Shown piece by piece: positions 1-10,400 of a DNA stretch of 64,000 nucleotides. The notes under the pieces were generated by a model. The model was not told where the DNA came from, did no database searches, and saw only the letters and a list, made by a program, of their open reading frames with translations. This DNA is from Scyliorhinus canicula (taxonomy: Eukaryota), in the NCBI RefSeq assembly GCF_902713615.1, contig NC_052157.1:61530146-61594145 (forward strand). The letters are read 5' to 3'. A program made the translations under genes and the position numbers. How positions within the stretch are numbered: position 1 is the first letter of the stretch; every line of letters begins with the position of its first letter.

Positions 1-54
1 AAGGCAGCTTTAAGAGCACTCCATGCTGCCACCACTGAGCAAAGGCAAAGCACA

Positions 55-1172
55 GTGGATCATGCGAAATGTAGAAAGCAGATTGCGCAGCTGCAATCCC
101 TGCTTTCTGTACAGAATGGGTTCCAAGAGACATTTGGAACCCAATTAGATGAAGAAAATGCCCCAGATTGGCAGGAATTAAGCGAAACCATGCACGTTAT
201 GTTCAGGGAACATGTCCGCCAGCAGCGCAACAGAAAAGGAAAGCGCCCCAACCCCCCACAGATCAGATAGCACCCGCACCTATGAACCCAGTCACCACCC
301 AAAGAAAGGCAAGCACAGAAGGCGCACCCGAGATCACCTACACCACCCCCTTAACCGTAACACAACTAAGGGACGCATGTGAGAAAATCACCCTGTTCCT
401 CCCCACTGCAGACCCCCACCAATTTTTCGCAAGAGTGAAACAACAGGCGGCCATGTATGGCCTGGATGAGCGAGAGCAGGTAAAGCTCACAGTGTTGAGT
501 TTAGACTCATCGATTATAGCAGCCCTCCCCGACCCACAGAACGTTGGAGGAGGCACATTAGAGGAGATGCATACATCTATTTTAGACACGACAGGGTACA
601 ACAGAGGAGACCCAGTCGAAGGCCTAAATAATTGTAGGCAGAAGAGGACAGAGCATCCCACAGCATTCGCAGGAAGGCTGTAGATTTATTTCACTGCCGT
701 TTTTGGCAATTTAGACCAAGCTCATTTAACCCACGATAATATGGTTAAATGGACCCGCACCATAATCTCCCATGCCACAGATGCAGAACAGAATGTCTGC
801 AGCAGTTATGACCCCTCAGAAGAGGCCCATAATGAAAAATGGGTTTCGAAAAGATTGTCCCGTGCTTGGGAACAATCCATCCAAGGCAAGGTTAAAGTTA
901 AGACCCCAGAAGAAGCTCAGGCTGCAGCAGATATACAGGCAGTAAGAGCACACCAAAACCCCGCATGGGTAAATGAAGGAAAGAACAGCCCCCCACAGAA
1001 GTCGCAGGAATGTTACAACTGCGGACATTTAGGACATTTTGCTAGGGAATACAACGCCCCACAGAGATCTCAGAGAGGCCAGCAGACAGGCACTCTGACC
1101 AGGAACAAAGCAAAGCCAATCCATAGTATAGGGATGCAGTCAGGACAGACCAATGTGGACGGAATGGACTGA
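55..1172 (+). pseudogene. gag: gag, disrupted, with one degenerate CCHC zinc knuckle
   Basis: ORFs 55-270, 168-683 and 741-1172. The knuckle CYNCGHLGHFAREY has its last Cys changed to Tyr. Ends in TGA in the same frame as pol. Confidence 0.8.
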
Positions 1173-4100
1173 CGGTGTTCGGGCTCCCCCACTTGGGTCT
1201 GTGACACCCCCTGGGACTGATCCGGAAGACCGGTGGTCACAGCAAAAATTAGAGGGAAGCCCATCGAATTACTTTGGGACACAGGAGGGTCCCGCACTAC
1301 CATTAATTCCTCCACTACACCACAAGCAGACACGTGGCCCACTACAGCTTCAATTACACTCAGCGGATTTACAGGTCACTCACAGCAGGGACACATTACA
1401 GCCCCTGTATCAATTCAGCTAGGGAACATCTCCACCAGACACCCCGTGGTGTTAGTTAATCTGCCCCGCACAGCAAAACACATACTGGGTATTGACTTCA
1501 TGAATGCCCACGGCCTGTCGTTCGATCCAGTAAATCAGTGTGTCTGGCGAATGGCAAAATCTGACAGAGCACCCGCAACTCTCACAGTAGGAGAGTACGC
1601 AAATAGGATTAGCGCTGTAGGCGACTATTGTTTTGACCCAACCACAGTTAGCACGGAAAAATAGGTTAGGGCAGTTTTGAACAGACACAGGACAGCATTT
1701 GCCAGTCACCGGCACGACTGCGGCAGAATGACTGGACAAGTTCAAGTTACTGGACCTGACCCGAGACCACAGAGACAGTACCGATTTCCCCTAGAAGCAG
1801 AGGGAGAAATTGGAAAGGTTATAGAGAGCTTATTAGAGCAGGGTGTACTTAGGACAGTAGCCTCAACTAATAATGCACCTATTTGGCCAGCGAGGAAGCC
1901 TGACGGATCATGGCGTCTGACCATAGATTATCGGGAACTCAACAAAGTAACCCCAGCAGTAGCCCCCACGGTAGCAACAAGTCCCGAGACCATGCTCAAA
2001 CAGGGACTCCACTCCAAATATTTCACGGTATTGGACATTAGCAACGGCTTCTGGTCAATCCCATTGGCAAAGGCGTGCCAGTACAAATTTGCCTTCACAT
2101 TTAAAGGACAGCAGTATACGTGGACATGCCTCCCACAAGGATTCCACAATTCCCCCTCCATTTGCCACCGACAGCTGGCAAATGGACTAGCAAAATTTTC
2201 CCGACCCGAATGTCTGGTACAGTATGTGGACGACCTATTACTGCAGACAGACACCAAGGCAAAGCACATCACGCTTCTGTCCAAACTCCTGGAACTATTG
2301 CAAAGTATTGGATGTAAAGTTAACCCCAGAAAGGCCCAAATATTGGAGAATCAGGTGATGTATTTGGGTACAGTCATCACGCACGGCAAATGAGAGATCG
2401 AATTCGAAAGAATTGACTCGATCATCAGATTGCCCCTTCCCCAGAATGTTTCAGCCCTCCGGTCGTTTTTAGGACTGGTTGGGTATTGTCGGAACCATAT
2501 CGATGGTTTTGCGACCAAGGCAGCCCCACTTTCAGACCTCCTTAAGAAAGGAGCCCCTTGGGAATGGCTTCCGCAGCATACAGAGGCTGTGGAAGAGTTA
2601 AAGAAAGCCCTCAGCGCAGCATCCGTGCTACAAGTTCCAGACCCACTCTCCCCCTATGCAATAGAGGTAGCTAGCACCGATCTGACCCTCTCGGCCGTGC
2701 TCCTTCAGGAATGGCACGAGCAACTACGACCAGAGGCTTATGCCTCCAGACTTTTAGACCCCGTAAAACAGGGATTTTCAGCCTGCGAGAGGCACCTACT
2801 AGCAGTATTTTGGGCAGTTCGGTACTTTTTGTACATTACTGGACTCAATCCCATCACCATTTTGACCGAACACACCCCCAGACAGTTACTTTTAGACGGT
2901 CGACTAAAGGACGGTTCAGTGAGCCAGATAAGAGCTGCTAGGTGGACACTACTGTTACAAGGATGGGACATAACAGTTAAACGGACCAGGACACACACAT
3001 TTTTAGCGGACAACCTACAGTATCTAGGACAACCCCATGAATGCGAGATAGTAGCACCCCTACACAACACAGGACCATTCATTGCCAAGACGCCCCCCAG
3101 GAAGATAGTGAATTCAAGCCAGAGCACCCAGTACACAGACACGTGTTCCCCCTTAAAGATATATTTGGACGGTTCATCCACAGTTTTAGATGGAGAACGC
3201 ATCACTGGATGTGGGATTTATGTGGAAGATGCGCAGGGACGCGCTTTAGAGGAGATATCTCTAAAATTACCAGGTCACTTAGGCGCGCAGGCAGCAGAGC
3301 TTGCGGCCATTGAATATATAGTGGACCACCCAGATTCGTTCCCCAGCCCAGCAGACATATATTCTGACAGTTTATATGTATGCAACAGCCTCACAGACTT
3401 TCTACCGCTGTGGAGGACAAGAGGTTTTGTCTCCGCGGACGGGAAGCCCCTTCCATCAGCCCCATTACTCCGCCATATCCTAGAGAAGGCAAAGGATAGG
3501 ACGTATGGCATTATCAAAGTTAGAAGCCACCATCGGTCATCCCCCCTGGAAATGTAAAAGCCGACGCACTGGCTAAAGCAGGTTCCAGGCGAGGTCATTT
3601 TTGGACACCCCCAGCTAGCGCACCAGCTAGCGCCCCTGTGAGTGCAGTTCAGGTCTCACAGACAGAAATAGAAGATTTAGTACAGGCACAGAAGCAGGAC
3701 GAAAATCTCCGGGAGATTTTAAAAGGAAACTTTGTGGCCCGTTCGATAAATTCAAACACGCTTTGACCACACATGAGGGTGTGATCATAAAAGACAAATT
3801 GTATGTGGTTCCTGAAAAGGACAGGAATCAAATGATTGCCTTATTCCATGATGGTCAGGGACACCAAGGGATCGACCGTACCACAACACACCTTAGACAA
3901 CTCTGTTGGTGGCCCAACTTAAGACAAGGTGTTACCCACTATATCGAGAATTGTTTAATTTGTGCACAGAATAACCCGGAGAGGTATTCAAAGAAGGCAC
4001 AACTCAGCCACACTCGCCCCGTTAATGGCCCCTGGACAAACCTCCAGATCGATTTTATAGGTCCATTGCCCCTTGCAGGAATGGCTATAAATATGTTCTG

Positions 4101-5603
4101 GTGGTCATAGATACCTTTACCAAATGGGTAGAGGCATTCCCTTCCCGCACCAACACAGCAAAGACAACTGCAAAGATCCTGACCCACCACATCTTTACGA
4201 GATGGGGACTCCCCAGAAGTATAGAATCAGATCAGGGATCTCATTTTACAGGACGGGTCATGAAGAACGTCCTGACCATATTCGGAATCAAACAGAACTT
4301 CCACATTGTGTATCACCCCCAGTCAAGCGGGATAGTGGAACGCATGAATCGGACTCTAAAATCGACCCTTAGAAAAATGGTACAGGAGAACAATTCGACT
4401 TGGGATTCAGTGCTCCCATTCGCTCTAATGTTCATAAGAAATACTGTTTCATCATCTACAGGTTTCACCCCACACACACTCATGACCGGACGCCCTATGA
4501 AAGGATCAGAATTCCTTTTAGGACTCTACACGACCAGCCCAGAAGTGACAGCCCTCACACACGAGAAAGCAGTTAAACAACTAGTTGAGACTGTAAGGTC
4601 TGCTCAGTTAGCAGCCGCAGTAAAATTGGGTAAAAGGAGGAAACAGAGCAAGGCCTGTTTCAACAAAAATGTCCACACCACAGAATTTCAGGTTGGGCAA
4701 CAAGTGATATTATCCATATATAACCCTAGCATGTTTTTGGCACCAAAAGTTTCCGGCCCGTACTCAATTTCGGACAAAATCAGCCCCTCAGTATATCGGA
4801 TAAAGTACCCCAACGGTAAGACTGCGTGGTTCCATATAAACCAGCTAAAGGCTTATGGAACACAGTCAAACCACTCACACCATGTCCTGCTAGATGCAGC
4901 AGAACACCTCGCCCCGCCCACAAGAGACACATTTCCACCCTCCCCCTCACAGACCAGTTCCTCATCGGACTCGACCTCGACTCCGCCCACTGACTTTAGG
5001 ACACGCCCCGGAACGCCCACAAGCTGCCACAGCAGAGACAGTGACAGTGACTGTGAGACTGAGGACAGCCACAGCACTCCACCCAACAGCCACCACTTCA
5101 GCGACTTCGACCCCAACTCCAGTGACCCCATGGAGATCACTTACATTAAAAATCCAGATCCACACCCAAACCCACCACCCAACACTGAAATGAAATGAAA
5201 ATGAAAATCGCTTATTGTCACGAGTAGGCTTCAATGAAGATACTGTGAAAAGCCCCTAGTCGCCACATTCCGGCGCCTGTCCGGGGAGGCTGGTACGGGA
5301 ATCGAACTGTGCTGCTGGCCTGCTTGGTCTGCTTTAAAAGCCAGCGATTTAGCTGAGTGAGCTAAACCAGCCCCTGACGACCCCGACAACGCTCCTTCAA
5401 TTTTAGACCCCACGATTTGGCACAGGGACAATTCTTGGAGACTTGTCCGCAATGACGAGAGTGACCCCCGGTCACACAATGCATAAATTACATGCCTGAT
5501 CCATACAAGGGTATGGGATCTGGGAGAAGAGGATGACTTGATGTCTGACTCCCGACACGGCAACCCCTTTGCGACCCTGTTCGCAGAGAATGAAGAGAAG
5601 TGA
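1173..5603 (+). pseudogene. pol: pol polyprotein: aspartic protease, RT, tether, RNase H, integrase with long C-terminal extension
   Basis: Protease LLWDTGGS. RT LPQGFHNSP and YVDD. Tether RSFLGLVGY...YASRLL...CERHLLAV. RNase H IYLDGSS...AQAAELAA...IYSDS. Integrase H-H-CxxC, QIDFIGP, ESDQGSHF, GIVERMN, GPY. After removing the SINE at 5187-5374 the frame continues to TGA at 5601-5603. Confidence 0.92.
5187..5374 (-). mobile_element. Short tRNA-derived SINE inserted in the integrase tail
   Basis: Minus-strand head ggggctggtttagctca...gttcgattccc (A/B boxes) and a (cattt)n tail. A near-identical copy lies at about 22682-22855. Confidence 0.85.
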
Positions 5604-5770: not shown

Positions 5771-6182
5771 GGGGCAGCACGGTAGCATGGTGGTTAGCAT
5801 AAATGCTTCACAGCTCCTTGGTCCCAGGTTCGATTCCCGGCTGGGTCACTGTCTGTGTGGAGTCTGCACGTCCTCCCCGTGTGTGCGTGGGTTTCTTCCG
5901 GGTGCTCTGGTTTCCTCCCACAGTCCAAAGATGTGCGGGTTAGGTGGATTGGCCATGCTAAATTGCCCGTAGTGTCCTAAAAAGTAAGGTTGGGTGGGGT
6001 GGGGTGGGGGGGGGGGGGGGTGGGGGGGGGGGGGTGGGGGGGGGGGGGGGGGGTTGTTGGGTTACGGGTATAGGGTGGATACGTGGGTTTGAATAGGGTG
6101 ATCATTGCTCGGCACAATATCGAGGGCCGAAGGGCCTCTTCTGTGCTGTACTGTTTTATGTTCTATGTTCTATGTTCTATGT
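5771..6182 (+). mobile_element. V-SINE (HE1-like) with CR1-type 3' tail
   Basis: tRNA-like head, V-SINE core tgtgtggagtctgcac...ggtttcctcccacagtccaaag, and (ttctatg)n tail. Sister copies at 10647-11002, 42295-42660 and 31770-31955 (3' half). Confidence 0.9.
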
Positions 6183-6876
6183 TAGTTTGTCCGCCGATAT
6201 TTCTGAGAACTTGACTCAGCTGAAATGTCTGGAGCCCAGCTCAACGTTTCACCAGGAGCATCTTGGCTCCCCTTTTTTTTAGGTGCCCCTCTATTCTGGG
6301 AATAGAGGCTGCAATTCCACAATGACTATATTCTTGCCCGTTCATTTCAGGTTGCTCAGGCAGTGGAGAAACGGCATTGAGGACCCACCCTGTCTGAGGA
6401 CCACCCCTTTGGTCAGCTAAGCTCGGGTACAGCACAGCAACCCCTACCCGGAGATCCCATACAACTCTTTCCCGTCGCGGCCCAAACGCAACTGATTCGA
6501 CCTTTCTTATTTCTAAAGCTTGGTTTCATTTTGTTTAAGGTAGCCTTCGGCCGCCACTCCATATGCTATTTACATCCAGGAACATTTTGGGATGGTAAAT
6601 TGCAACACTCTGCGAGACGGCTCGCACTGGTTTAGTAGATAAGTATACGTCTGGTCCTAAATCCGTTTTTGAAAAAAAAATGAGGGAGTCACATGGAGGT
6701 GACCATCATAAAGGGAAAATTGGAACAAGAGGACAGATATACTTAAAGTCAAGATATTAAGCTGAACACTAACAGATAATACGCTTGATCCCTTAGCTTT
6801 CGGACGTTCGCGAGAGGAACCGAAGCAACAGCACAGCAAGATCCCAGGAAGGAAGAGCAGAGAAGAGACAGATAAG

Positions 6877-7233
6877 ATGAAGAGCACTCCAATTGCTATG
6901 TTTTTAGCTATTGTGGCATCTGTGTGGTTGCGCGTGGACGCGGACCCCCTTTCCCACAGTACAACGTTTGCTAACTTCTCCCAAACCCAGACCACCCCCA
7001 GCCCAGTCAATGGTAACAGTACCCCGACCTGGTGTACCAGATTTCTGACATGGTACTCCTTGTCGTATGTCATAGAATCACTTTTGGTGATTGCAGTTCT
7101 CTGTATTATAGTCCAAACCCTCAGGATGAGGAAATGGAGAAGGAGAGCCCACCGCTCTCGTGCCTCAACAGTGTACAGAGTACAATCACCCATTTTCAGA
7201 TTCCACCAATCCCCCCAACCCCTTGATGTGTAA
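6877..7233 (+). CDS. 118-aa putative type I membrane glycoprotein (accessory ORF of the retrovirus-like element)
   Basis: Signal-peptide-like MKSTPIAMFLAIVASVWLRVDA, S/T-rich ectodomain with NFS and NST sequons, hydrophobic YVIESLLVIAVLCIIV, polybasic RMRKWRRRAHRSR. AATAAA follows immediately after the stop. Confidence 0.65.
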   Translation: MKSTPIAMFLAIVASVWLRVDADPLSHSTTFANFSQTQTTPSPVNGNSTPTWCTRFLTWYSLSYVIESLLVIAVLCIIVQTLRMRKWRRRAHRSRASTVYRVQSPIFRFHQSPQPLDV

Positions 7234-7409
7234 TAAAGGATTTAATTTTGATATGATCTGTAAATAAAGACTTTGCGGATGTATTATAATGTTCTGAGTT
7301 CGACTGCCGAGTCAGAAATGAAATGTAATGATGCTGCTGTGTGAATGATTAAGGGATTAGAATGTTGTAGAATGTTTAAATATGAGATGAGAGTAGTTTA
7401 TTGAGATAG

Positions 7410-10400
7410 TTAAAATGTCCACGTCCAGCATTTCATCTGCCAGTGATTGTTGTGGCGGTCGTGGGTACGTCCTTGTTTCTTTGCACAGAAAGTTTTTAAG
7501 CTGCAGGTACCTGAATTAGTTACCACCAGTTAGGTGGAATCTTTCTGTCAGCTCATCCAGCGTTGTTATTCTACCGTCAGTTTGCAGATCCCTAACTGTC
7601 AGCATCCCCCCATCCTGCCTCCACCTTTCGAAGGGGGCATCTGTGAGCACTGCCATGACCCTGTGGTTGTTGAAGATGGGGGCCTTATCGGACATTTTGG
7701 TTACGCCAAATTGTTGTCGCAGTTGATTTTACGACTGGAATTTTGCCACAATCTTTGGGCTGGTTGATTGCTTCTTGGGTGGAGATGGGAGTTCCACCGT
7801 GGCTAGGGCCTGGAGGAAGCTCCTCCTCCATGAGCACCCACTCAACTTCCGGCTCCTTTATCCACCCCTTTATTCTTTCTGCTGTCGCTGCCCAGAGATT
7901 GTATCTTAGATTTGGGAGGACTAGTTCCCCATGGATTTTTATCTCAGTAGAGCCTTCTTTGGGATCCTTGCATTCTTCCTCCCCCCCACCACCCCTGGCT
8001 TGCCTCCACACGAACACCATAATTAGTTTGTCCTGTGAGTTGAAAAAAGCCTTGGGGATTTTTATCGGGATGGATCTAATGGATCTAAATGGGAAGAGGT
8101 AGATTGGCAGCACATTCATTTTTATCATCTGCACCCTCCCCGCTCGGGAGAATGGGAGTGTGTTTCACCTCTGCAGGCCCTTTTTAACTTTCTCTGTCAG
8201 ACTGGTCAGGTTCTATTTATGAACTCCCGTCCAGTCTTGAGCGAATTGAATCCCCAGGTAGCAGAATTTATGCCAGGTCCGTTTGAATGGCAATCCCACC
8301 AGCTCTGCCCCTCCTCTTGCAGGCTTACTGGGAAGATCTCGCTTTTGCTCATGTTGAGCTTGTCACCCAAGAAGGGTCCAAATTCTTTCAAGAGCGCAAT
8401 GATTCCTTCCATGCTGCTTTGAGGGTCCGTTATGTAATAATCTTTATTGTCACAAATAGACTTACATTAACACTGCAATGAAGGTACTGTGAAAAGCCCC
8501 TAGTCGCCACATTCCGGTGCCTGTAGAGGAGCAGGCCATCCGCATAGAGCAAGACTCTCTGCTCTCTGCCTCCTCTTCAGATCACCTTCCAATTTTTTGC
8601 CATGTTAAGGAATGGGTTAAGAGACATTCCAATTAAATGTCTCATTTATGTTAAGTATCCAATAATTGACACTGATATGTAAACAGCTTCAGGTGGCCTT
8701 TGAGGCATGTGATGTGGTCACAAAGCTTTTGTACAGAGTTGTGTTAAAGGAAAATAAAGGTGTTTGTGAGAAGGAGCAGAACTTTTGACTCTTTATACAA
8801 CAGCAGCTAAACGGCTAACATGCCACTCTGAATGCAATCGCTAATGGCTCTATCACAAATGCAAACAGCAGCAGGGATAGCAGGTATCCCTGTCTCGTGC
8901 CCTTGTGCAGCTGGAGATACTTCGAGCTGGTGGTGTTTGTTCGAATGCTCGCCATGAGGGCGTTATACAGGAGTTTTACTCAGGCGATGAATCCTGTTCC
9001 GAGCCCGAACCGCTTCATCTCGAAGGGCTTTTCTGCTTCCTGGGAGACGATCACCTCAGGTGTTCTCTCCCCGGATGGGGTCATGATCCCGTTTCACCTC
9101 GTGGAGAGCAGGTGAAAGTCCATCTGTAGTTTTTTTCTTTCCGCCAGGAGCTCTACGGTCAGAGCCTCGGAGTATCGCCAGTCCACCTCCGGTATGGAGT
9201 CAACTCGCTGTCACCTGGCCACCCTCTCTTTCCTGTCTCTTCTTGCTTTAAAAGCGATAATTTATCCCCTGATCAAAGCCTTCAGCGCCTCCAAGAACGT
9301 GAAGGGTGAGACCTCCCCGTTCTGGTTGTTCTTTATATATTCATTTGTGGCCTGTGATATTTTCTCACAAAAAGCTTTGTCAGCCAGTAAGCCTGTGTCC
9401 AACCTCCATGTGAGGTGTTGGGCACGGCCTGTCTCCAATCTCACATCCATGGAATGTGGAGTGTGCTCTGAGATTACGATTATGGAGTAGGCCGCCCTAA
9501 CCAGCCCTGGAAGCACCGATTTCCCCACCATAAAGAAGTCGATCCTTGAGTAAACATTATGCACTTGGGAGAAGAAGGAGAACTCTTTCTCCTCTGGGTG
9601 GGTGAATCGCCATGGGTCCACTGCCCCTATCTGCTCCATAAAAAGGCCAAGTTCCTTTGCCATGCTGGAGGTCTTTCCCATTTTGGGGTTCGACCTGTCC
9701 GTCCGTGGGTCCTGTATGCAGTTAAAACTCGCACCATGATCAGTTGGTGCATGTCTGTGTCGGGGATTTCTGTCATGGTCTTCTTTATAAACTCCGTGTC
9801 GTCCCAGTTGGGAGAATTAATGAGGACTACCGGTGCCCCGTCTAGGATACCGATGACCATGACGTACCGTCCCCCTGGGTCCGTTACCGCCTTTGCCACT
9901 GTGTACATCGTCCACTTATTAATTAGAGTGGTTACCCCACTGGCCCTCGTTCCGTAGCAGGAATGGTAGATCTGTCCCACCCAGCCCTTCCTTACCCAGT
10001 CGGTCCTTCTCCCTCAGGTGTTTCTCTTGGAGGAAGACTATGTCGGCTCTCATATTCCTCAGGTAGGTGAAGACTCTGGATCTTTTCACTGGGCCGTTAA
10101 GCCCCCTGACATTCCAGGTGAATATCCTGATGGGGGTTTTTTGTCCTTCCGCTCCTGTGGGATTACCCAGATTCGCTCAGTGGATGTGCCCCTGCACTCC
10201 AGGCTTTCCCTTTGTTAGGGGACCATCCAAAATGGCCGTGGTCACTGTTCTCCCCATGTGGTCGGGCCCCTGCAGTCCGGTGTCTCCTTTTGCCCAGGGA
10301 CCCTTCTAAGTGGTTGCTTAGCCCACGTGTGGCCTGCTGCAGCCAGTCTGCCATTTTTGATCTGTCCTTTCACCTTGCTGGGGGCACACCGCAGCCACTG

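Follow-up and report, generated by a model that had tools for sequence, protein, structure and literature searches.

An open reading frame (ORF) of 118 codons occupies the place of env in an endogenous retrovirus (ERV) of Scyliorhinus canicula. It belongs to a known kind of gene, internally deleted Env, and stands out in that an active lineage has it throughout as a fixed gene under selection. We give a probability of roughly 0.45 to the whole explanation proposed here, namely an env-derived gene which was selected during multiplication of the element and whose product is likely a membrane anchor recruiting capsids.

Structure of the element and state of the window copy

The window analysed here is the whole stretch of 64,000 nucleotides (contig NC_052157.1, 61,530,146 to 61,594,145, forward strand), and positions refer to it unless a locus is named. 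The element is organized as LTR-gag-pol-ORF-LTR, which leaves no room for env, and the ORF is a fixed part of a large retrovirus family. In 29 of the 29 other copies examined, the 3' LTR was reached 186-192 bp past window position 7412 without any env in between. A reading made earlier from the sequence alone (the sequence-only reading) had found no env downstream of pol; this holds for the family, and the region does belong to the element.

The window opens within the 3' part of gag (1..1172, +), which is broken here and encodes one CCHC knuckle, while the gag start and a 934-bp 5' LTR lie upstream of the window (L031:8170-9103). It is followed by a likewise broken pol (1173..5600, +; PR-RT-tether-RNase H-IN), which in intact relatives lies in frame behind the gag TGA. 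The lesions already noticed in both genes amount to two stops and at least one frame break in gag, and to four stops, at least three frame breaks and one copy-specific insertion in pol. This insertion is a repeat at the end of the gene (5189..5373, unstranded), and a SINE-like one with a G-rich tract lies between pol and the ORF (5772..6180, +); in the other copies, pol continues to the ORF without either. The 3' untranslated region (7234..7412, +) is truncated at 7412, where a LINE-like fragment cuts the element, and the polypurine tract and 3' LTR of this copy are missing. A decayed LINE-like element (7413-9960, -; recognized by eye, with no Pfam match) adjoins the truncation point.

The integrase has a long C-terminal extension (4870-5600), rich in S, T, P and D and ending in W-x-P-G-E...N-P-F, which is common to all families. 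The primer site just upstream of the window resembles one for tRNA-Arg, as for SnRV. Among young copies (L148-L153), the primer-binding site that follows the 5' LTR differs beyond its first eight bases, which would not usually be expected with a single priming tRNA.

Gag carries a CCHC knuckle (zf-CCHC, E 1e-7) and has no Gly2. The reverse transcriptase bears the retroviral motifs L-P-Q-G...Y-V-D-D and is closest, among solved structures, to foamy RT. The closest Pol proteins are the 'NYNRIN-like' retroviral Pols of frog and coelacanth (55-60% identity in RT), a likeness to the SnRV-like, class III-related ERVs of fish and amphibians. An SnRV-like lineage is reported from a chimaera (PMC4422223). 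SnRV differs in having a full env plus accessory ORFs (PMC12193657). From its sequence likenesses, we file the element as a candidate unclassified class III/SnRV-related ERV. A search of viral contigs with the RT found no relative.

Anatomy of the ORF

The ORF (6877..7233, +) is real and runs from ATG to TAA without interruption, as first reported, and is annotated as a mini-env, to which env was reduced by internal deletion and whose predicted product is a type I membrane glycoprotein of 118 aa. Hydropathy and sequence agree with the parts originally described, that is, a signal peptide, an S/T/P-rich ectodomain with two sequons, one transmembrane helix, a polybasic run and a short tail. The signal peptide is predicted at aa 1-22 (6877..6942, +) from hydropathy, anatomy, dN and alignments, with a putative cleavage site; the Kyte-Doolittle 19-aa mean is 1.25-1.53 for spans starting at residues 1-7, and the segment is hydrophobic in every aligned subfamily and variable in sequence. 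The stalk (aa 23-50; 6943..7026, +) is 54% S/T/P and contains the sequons N33-F-S and N47-S-T, both read from the sequence. N33-x-S is invariant in nine of nine aligned members, and in a longer, 218-aa form described below the equivalent stretch aligns with env HR2.

A Trp-rich membrane-proximal segment (aa 51-61; 7027..7059, +; hydrophobic moment ~0.4) is the counterpart of the Trp-rich segment preceding the env transmembrane helix. The helix itself (about aa 62-82; 7060..7122, +) is the single strong one of the protein (Kyte-Doolittle peak 2.48 at 61-79) and its most conserved part. The cytoplasmic tail (7123..7230, +) starts with a basic run, R83-R95, and continues with Y-x-V-x-S-P-I-F-x-F-H-Q, a conserved segment of amphipathic character. 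Like the basic run, the C-terminal PLDV is read straight from the sequence. The sequence-only reading had singled it out, and it is present in this copy but not conserved, sister subfamilies ending in PLEM, PHDE or DYNTL instead; a PDZ-type role was rejected.

Two AATAAA hexamers soon after the stop (7232..7268, +) were also correctly noted, the first at 7232, overlapping the stop codon, and the second at 7263. At least one AATAAA lies within 60 nt of the stop in all 15 of 15 young sister copies, as a putative signal. An overlapping minus-strand ORF of 178 aa was rejected, as it has no Pfam match and the selection signal described below is specific to the plus frame (three plus frames tested).

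Protein searches with the 118-aa ORF gave no match at similar lengths (3 candidates) and no characterised relative. Pfam returned sub-threshold TM matches only, and the best ESM Atlas score was 0.88, below the useful level, the look-alikes being generic small type I proteins.

Selection on the protein and activity of the family

A DNA search of the same genome with window positions 6200-7330 gave at least 3485 candidates (the best 40 scored, 30 taken as loci), and a protein search gave at least 5374 (the best 150 scored). Among 29 DNA-picked copies, 12 have an ORF that no stop or frameshift interrupts, 11 of them with the ATG, against 15 of 22 copies open over an integrase stretch of equal length. 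Openness of the ORF in this copy is thus what chance gives: the observation that it stays open while gag and pol decay is correct here, but carries no more than chance weight. Nor is the copy better preserved than its neighbours, with two private changes in 354 nt of ORF versus nine in 954 nt of integrase and spacer (Fisher p 0.74). The suggested retention by the host therefore fails on both counts, and co-option was rejected because this locus shows no excess conservation after insertion.

Selection was assessed on 49 copies, namely the 29 DNA-picked ones and 20 picked by protein similarity, which were excluded from the intactness counts for that reason. Codon-level conservation, which the sequence-only reading had proposed to look for by aligning copies, was found among variants common to at least three of these copies (w 0.36 from N=28 and S=29, p 1e-4; w 0.32 without CpG sites). 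The same test gave 1.36 and 1.58 in the shifted frames, 0.72-1.33 for the upstream spacer and 0.11-0.14 for integrase, while singletons are neutral (w 1.18, 49 copies). Between subfamilies, dS exceeds 1, whereas a comparison with the young group gives a dN of 0.07-0.11 for aa 51-83. For this stretch, dN/dS comes to 0.04-0.14, and for the tail to 0.10-0.29. Leader and stalk diverge between subfamilies yet remain hydrophobic and S/T/P-rich. Purifying selection acted on the protein during element replication, not after insertion. It was the multiplying virus family that kept the ORF, not the host, and, as selection maintained it there, it likely still has a job.

The family includes a young group. 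An integrase query gave 132 matches, and 15 of the 20 fetched belong to this group, the other five being older loci with broken homologues of the ORF. A 106-118-aa version of the ORF, about 50-58% identical to the window protein, is present in 15 of 15 young loci, and intact members start with MKS or MME and have a hydrophobic leader. LTR pairs are 98.4-100% identical in all six full copies (6/6), which also have an open pol frame of 1408-1411 codons (6/6) and, in four of six, a full 582-aa gag. Gag begins M-A-M-Q (MAMQ) in 12 of 12 copies and thus has no myristoylation glycine. The near-identical LTRs and intact pol frames suggest that the young subfamily is currently active. It comprises many near-identical copies (L053-L072, L148-L153), two of which show a 4-bp target duplication.

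Descent from env

Three graded forms of the gene occur in one genome: a decayed env of ~700 aa, a 218-aa form and the 113-118-aa form. A third family, with a pol about 67-70% identical in DNA, was found via a chance neighbour in locus L067. The 218-aa ORF lies in the same place and comprises a signal peptide, a 110-aa Cys-rich domain, a stalk, a Trp-segment, a helix, a basic run and a tail. Searching with its Cys domain (595 candidates, 150 scored) led to older elements in which this domain opens a gene of ~700 codons. In this gene, the Cys domain is followed by a Pro-rich linker, a beta-rich stretch and an R-V-K-R furin site. Beyond that site (R-V-K-R|G-L), a fusion-peptide-like segment rich in Gly and Ala precedes two heptads with a Cys-rich region between them, and the gene closes with a Trp-rich segment, the helix and a tail of basic character.

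Its position and anatomy are the grounds for calling the long gene env. Of the marks of a gamma-type Env, ISD and CX6CC, no CX6CC was seen by eye in the long relatives, and there was no TLV_coat-type Pfam match. Among 20 loci picked by the env C-terminal piece, 14 have three markers behind pol, spread over ~2 kb and ordered as Cys domain, fusion-peptide/HR1 piece and C-terminal piece. Separate internal deletions are seen in three others of the 20 and in L121; as read from these sequences, env shrank more than once in the lineage. No intact copy of the long env was found, the longest open frames being 335 aa (150 of 384 candidates scored) and 393 aa (150 of 321 scored). In L121, L135, L139 and L140, separate internal deletions have fused the region of the Cys domain with the C-terminal part of env.

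The forms are linked in steps. The 218-aa family and the long env share two collinear DNA blocks with ~1.3 kb missing between them (for L120 versus L128, q428-1421/s934-1973 and q1541-2135/s3399-3971), and their Cys domains are 41-50% identical. Between the window and the 218-aa family, the upstream non-coding blocks and the anchor align, with about 280 nt missing in between. HHalign connects the 118-aa with the 218-aa family (P 98.6, E 6e-16) and the 218-aa family with the C-half of env (P 91.7, E 8e-7), the direct comparison of the 118-aa family with the full env being weak alone (P 30.6, E 5e-4). Against shuffles within 10-aa windows, z is 9.8 for the window protein versus the 218-aa form, 3.4-8.6 for the 218-aa form versus the long one, 3.6-4.2 for the window protein versus three env tails, and 1.9-2.5 for the young-subfamily protein versus env tails. 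The 118-aa gene is thus very probably the remnant of env after internal deletions, its link to the full env resting on the 218-aa intermediate.

Deletion, and not insertion, is indicated because the stalk of the 218-aa form aligns with the second heptad, which makes sense only in a full fusion protein. Pol trees, which left out rows with frame-broken hits, group the short-ORF families (support 93/98 for RT and 93/85 for IN) with an open base. AU tests of one short-form clade gave p 0.30 (RT) and 0.46 (IN), so that a single origin is neither shown nor rejected. As the RT and IN trees leave the family order open, the direction of change rests on parsimony.

By position, the short ORF is an env, as it lies between pol and the 3' LTR behind a putative splice acceptor. 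A furin site, a fusion peptide, HR1/HR2 and a receptor-binding ectodomain are all lacking in the 118-aa protein and occur only in its long, broken relatives. In the 218-aa form, the Cys domain is under selection (w about 0.2-0.5 between divergent members), and this N-terminal env domain (110 aa; L084:1822-2187 (-) and relatives) is a likely receptor-binding domain. It had no match in Pfam, PDB or the Atlas. The 218-aa family profile, run against 1.84 billion representatives, gave seven hits, all apparently pieces of the same lineage. AlphaFold models were of low confidence (pLDDT 46.6 for the env C-half, 40.5 for the Cys domain), a single fold search gave no match at E<=0.001, PDB phmmer searches with env pieces returned nothing meaningful, and Pfam named no relative of the long gene.

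The sequence-only reading had proposed an unknown retroviral accessory membrane protein. The gene is indeed encoded by the element, selected and without characterised relative in the protein searches, but it is the remnant of a longer env, which that reading had named as an outcome that would speak against it, though a conserved remnant and not a decaying one. A role as receptor-interference factor, also put forward there, is unlikely for the 118-aa form because its only globular ectodomain has been deleted. The other two roles suggested in that reading, a restriction antagonist and a mini-fusogen, may still apply and are weighed below.

Splicing, gene models and RNA

A non-coding block (6666..6796, +) is conserved between the 118-aa and 218-aa families (72-78% DNA identity) and ends at AG 6795-6796, the likely env splice acceptor, 80 nt upstream of the ATG. 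Another conserved non-coding block, also located between pol and the ORF (6310-6490), shows 63-70% DNA identity between families. The 5' LTR contains a splice-donor-like GTAAGT, 135 nt downstream of its TATA box.

The ORF forms the end of eight database gene models from two catshark species, fused there to upstream sequence, which in five of the eight belongs to named host genes; two catshark species also account for the named protein matches of the ORF family. These models are predicted; in two of them, the element match begins at AG 6795-6796, and several others read alike by eye. Genes with models ending in the ORF are SUGCT, a B3GAT1-like gene, KIAA1958, a galectin-domain gene and a HEPACAM2-like gene. 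The unit formed by acceptor, ORF and AATAAA may thus act as a terminal-exon trap giving host proteins a membrane anchor, as these models suggest.

About 1 in 100 reads of a raw single-cell poly(A) run, together with contig sets of presumed-RNA runs, were mapped to two relatives. Reads of the family occur, and for 50 reads a poly(A) end lies 23 nt past the AATAAA in the LTR of a young copy. The ORF itself is thinly covered on both strands (depth about 7 in one mapping and 9-50 in another), with reads not assignable to loci. RNA junctions into the region, which the sequence-only reading had suggested looking for, did not turn up, as no spliced read into the acceptor was among the joints listed from the single-cell poly(A) run and the presumed-RNA contigs. 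Immediately 5' of the acceptor there is a pile-up of single-cell reads from both strands.

Possible functions of the short protein

We propose that the mini-Env would be expressed from a spliced subgenomic RNA, with its donor in the LTR and its acceptor at 6796, and would enter the secretory pathway to serve as a membrane anchor for capsids whose Gag lacks the myristoylation glycine. Contact between tail and Gag would gather or bud capsids at the membrane. As furin site, fusion peptide and heptads are gone, the protein cannot act as a class I fusogen, and new insertions would therefore come about within the cell of origin or through direct transfer. We hold the capsid-to-membrane anchor tentatively, at somewhat less than even odds, partly by analogy. 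It is favoured because selection holds the membrane-proximal segment, the helix and the tail, because the myristoylation glycine is absent from Gag (12/12) and because foamy viruses bud only with their cognate Env (PMC3667135). Against it, the leader is short and variable here, whereas the Gag-binding site of foamy viruses is the Env leader peptide; the foamy analogy is thus functional only. It also counts against an anchor that other env-less ERVs multiply without any env remnant.

Two other functions deserve weight, though both are doubtful. The mini-Env could be a repurposed Env fragment acting on host membrane proteins, either as a restriction-factor antagonist, in the manner of Vpu or glyco-Gag, or as a receptor modulator like gp55 of SFFV. 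Conservation peaks in the transmembrane helix, as expected for helix-helix contacts, the Cys domain stays selected in the 218-aa form, and gp55, an internally deleted env with a new activity, has the layout of that form (PMC3185572). However, no partner was identified, the youngest families discarded the ectodomain, and gp55 lacks the cytoplasmic tail that is conserved here. It is unlikely, by a similar token, that the mini-Env remodels or fuses membranes at cell contacts in the manner of FAST and sORF2 proteins, so that capsids pass directly, for example from follicle cells to the oocyte. Its size (113-118 aa, with a mature ectodomain of about 35-40 aa), its single helix flanked on either side by amphipathic segments and the polybasic run next to the membrane match sORF2/FAST hallmarks, some sORF2-like proteins sit downstream of pol (PMC11952523), and the family is large, with at least 3485 DNA candidates. 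On the other hand, the N-terminal Met-Gly myristoylation motif, a criterion in sORF2 searches, is replaced by a predicted cleaved signal peptide and a glycosylated stalk, searches gave no sequence link to FAST or sORF2, and the polybasic run may be a stop-transfer signal inherited from env. The bolder form of this idea, in which a still-active vertebrate retrovirus whittled its env stepwise to a FAST-like 113-118-aa protein moving capsids from cell to cell into the germline, is equally improbable; if true, env would here for the first time have given rise to a minimal transfer or fusion factor, a vertebrate counterpart of insect sORF2 with its intermediates in one genome.

Readings without env descent or without function in the element fare worse. 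That the ORF is an independent accessory gene, whose likeness to the env anchor reflects generic type I membrane-protein composition, would agree with the low direct profile score against env and with the generic Atlas look-alikes, but is very unlikely and largely refuted by DNA collinearity through the 218-aa form, the common upstream acceptor block and the shuffle-controlled scores. There is scarcely more than a slight chance that the ORF is a leftover of env evolving neutrally, or that the host co-opted the copy found here, as the open frame of this copy and the eight gene models could suggest: codon-level selection among shared variants excludes neutrality, and co-option is opposed by private changes that match the neighbouring sequence, by neutral singletons, by the lost 3' LTR and by the nature of the gene models, which are scattered chimaeras with unrelated host genes.

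Comparison with known systems

The 218-aa relative has the layout of SFFV gp55, in which a large internal env deletion removes the SU/TM cleavage site and joins the N-terminal SU domain to the C-terminal TM part (PMC3185572). However, gp55 belongs to one helper-dependent defective virus, keeps its receptor-binding domain and has no tail, whereas the short gene is a fixed feature of several subfamilies, in two or more shark species, has a conserved tail and, in its 118-aa form, has lost the globular domain too. With sORF2 of MDG1-group LTR retrotransposons and reovirus FAST proteins (PMC11952523), it shares a small single-pass protein with a short ectodomain, a polybasic run and amphipathic segments, and its presence in an env-less LTR element. 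It differs in env descent, in having a predicted signal peptide and N-glycan in place of a myristoylation motif, and in its carrier, a vertebrate retrovirus, while sORF2 elements are insect Metaviridae.

Foamy viruses resemble the element in the RT (closest among solved structures), in a Gag without Gly2, in the 4-bp target duplication (2 copies) and in GTAAGT inside the LTR. Foamy Gag is not known to carry a Cys-His box (CCHC), and foamy Pol is expressed apart from Gag, whereas here Gag has a CCHC knuckle, and gag and pol form one frame behind a TGA; foamy Env also binds Gag through a long leader peptide, the leader being short here. A true foamy virus was rejected on the Gag zf-CCHC match (E 1e-7) and on pol lying in frame behind the gag TGA. 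A lokiretrovirus was rejected as well, the RT having L-P-Q-G and not the CPFG of Loki (compared by eye with sequences in the paper's supplement), with no PF00523 match. Env-less ERV megafamilies such as MuERV-L and IAP similarly reached high copy number after losing a fusogenic env, and were reportedly described by Magiorkinis in 2012 as 'genomic superspreaders'; here, by contrast, an env core is under purifying selection instead of decay.

The full-text literature, in which few subscription papers were included, yielded no account of a minimal env conserved in ERVs of fish or sharks, although the family may already be catalogued in repeat libraries. The sources compared were PMC7947760, PMC5210030, PMC12067270, PMC12193657, PMC10435555, PMC11905727, PMC4422223, bioRxiv 10.1101/2021.11.23.469661 and bioRxiv 10.64898/2026.05.06.723177.

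Implications

A screen requiring a long env ORF or ISD/CX6CC motifs would class elements of this kind as env-less (PMC10435555; bioRxiv 10.64898/2026.05.06.723177). The acceptor of the gene appears, in addition, to trap host genes as a terminal exon. ERVs are usually sorted as infectious, with an intact env, or as intracellular, with an env lost or decaying, and this lineage fits neither class. It dropped the fusion machinery, but the anchor and tail have stayed under strong selection in subfamilies whose silent sites are saturated, up to copies with identical LTRs. The gene thus isolates a function of Env that is independent of entry and can be tested with the 118-aa protein.
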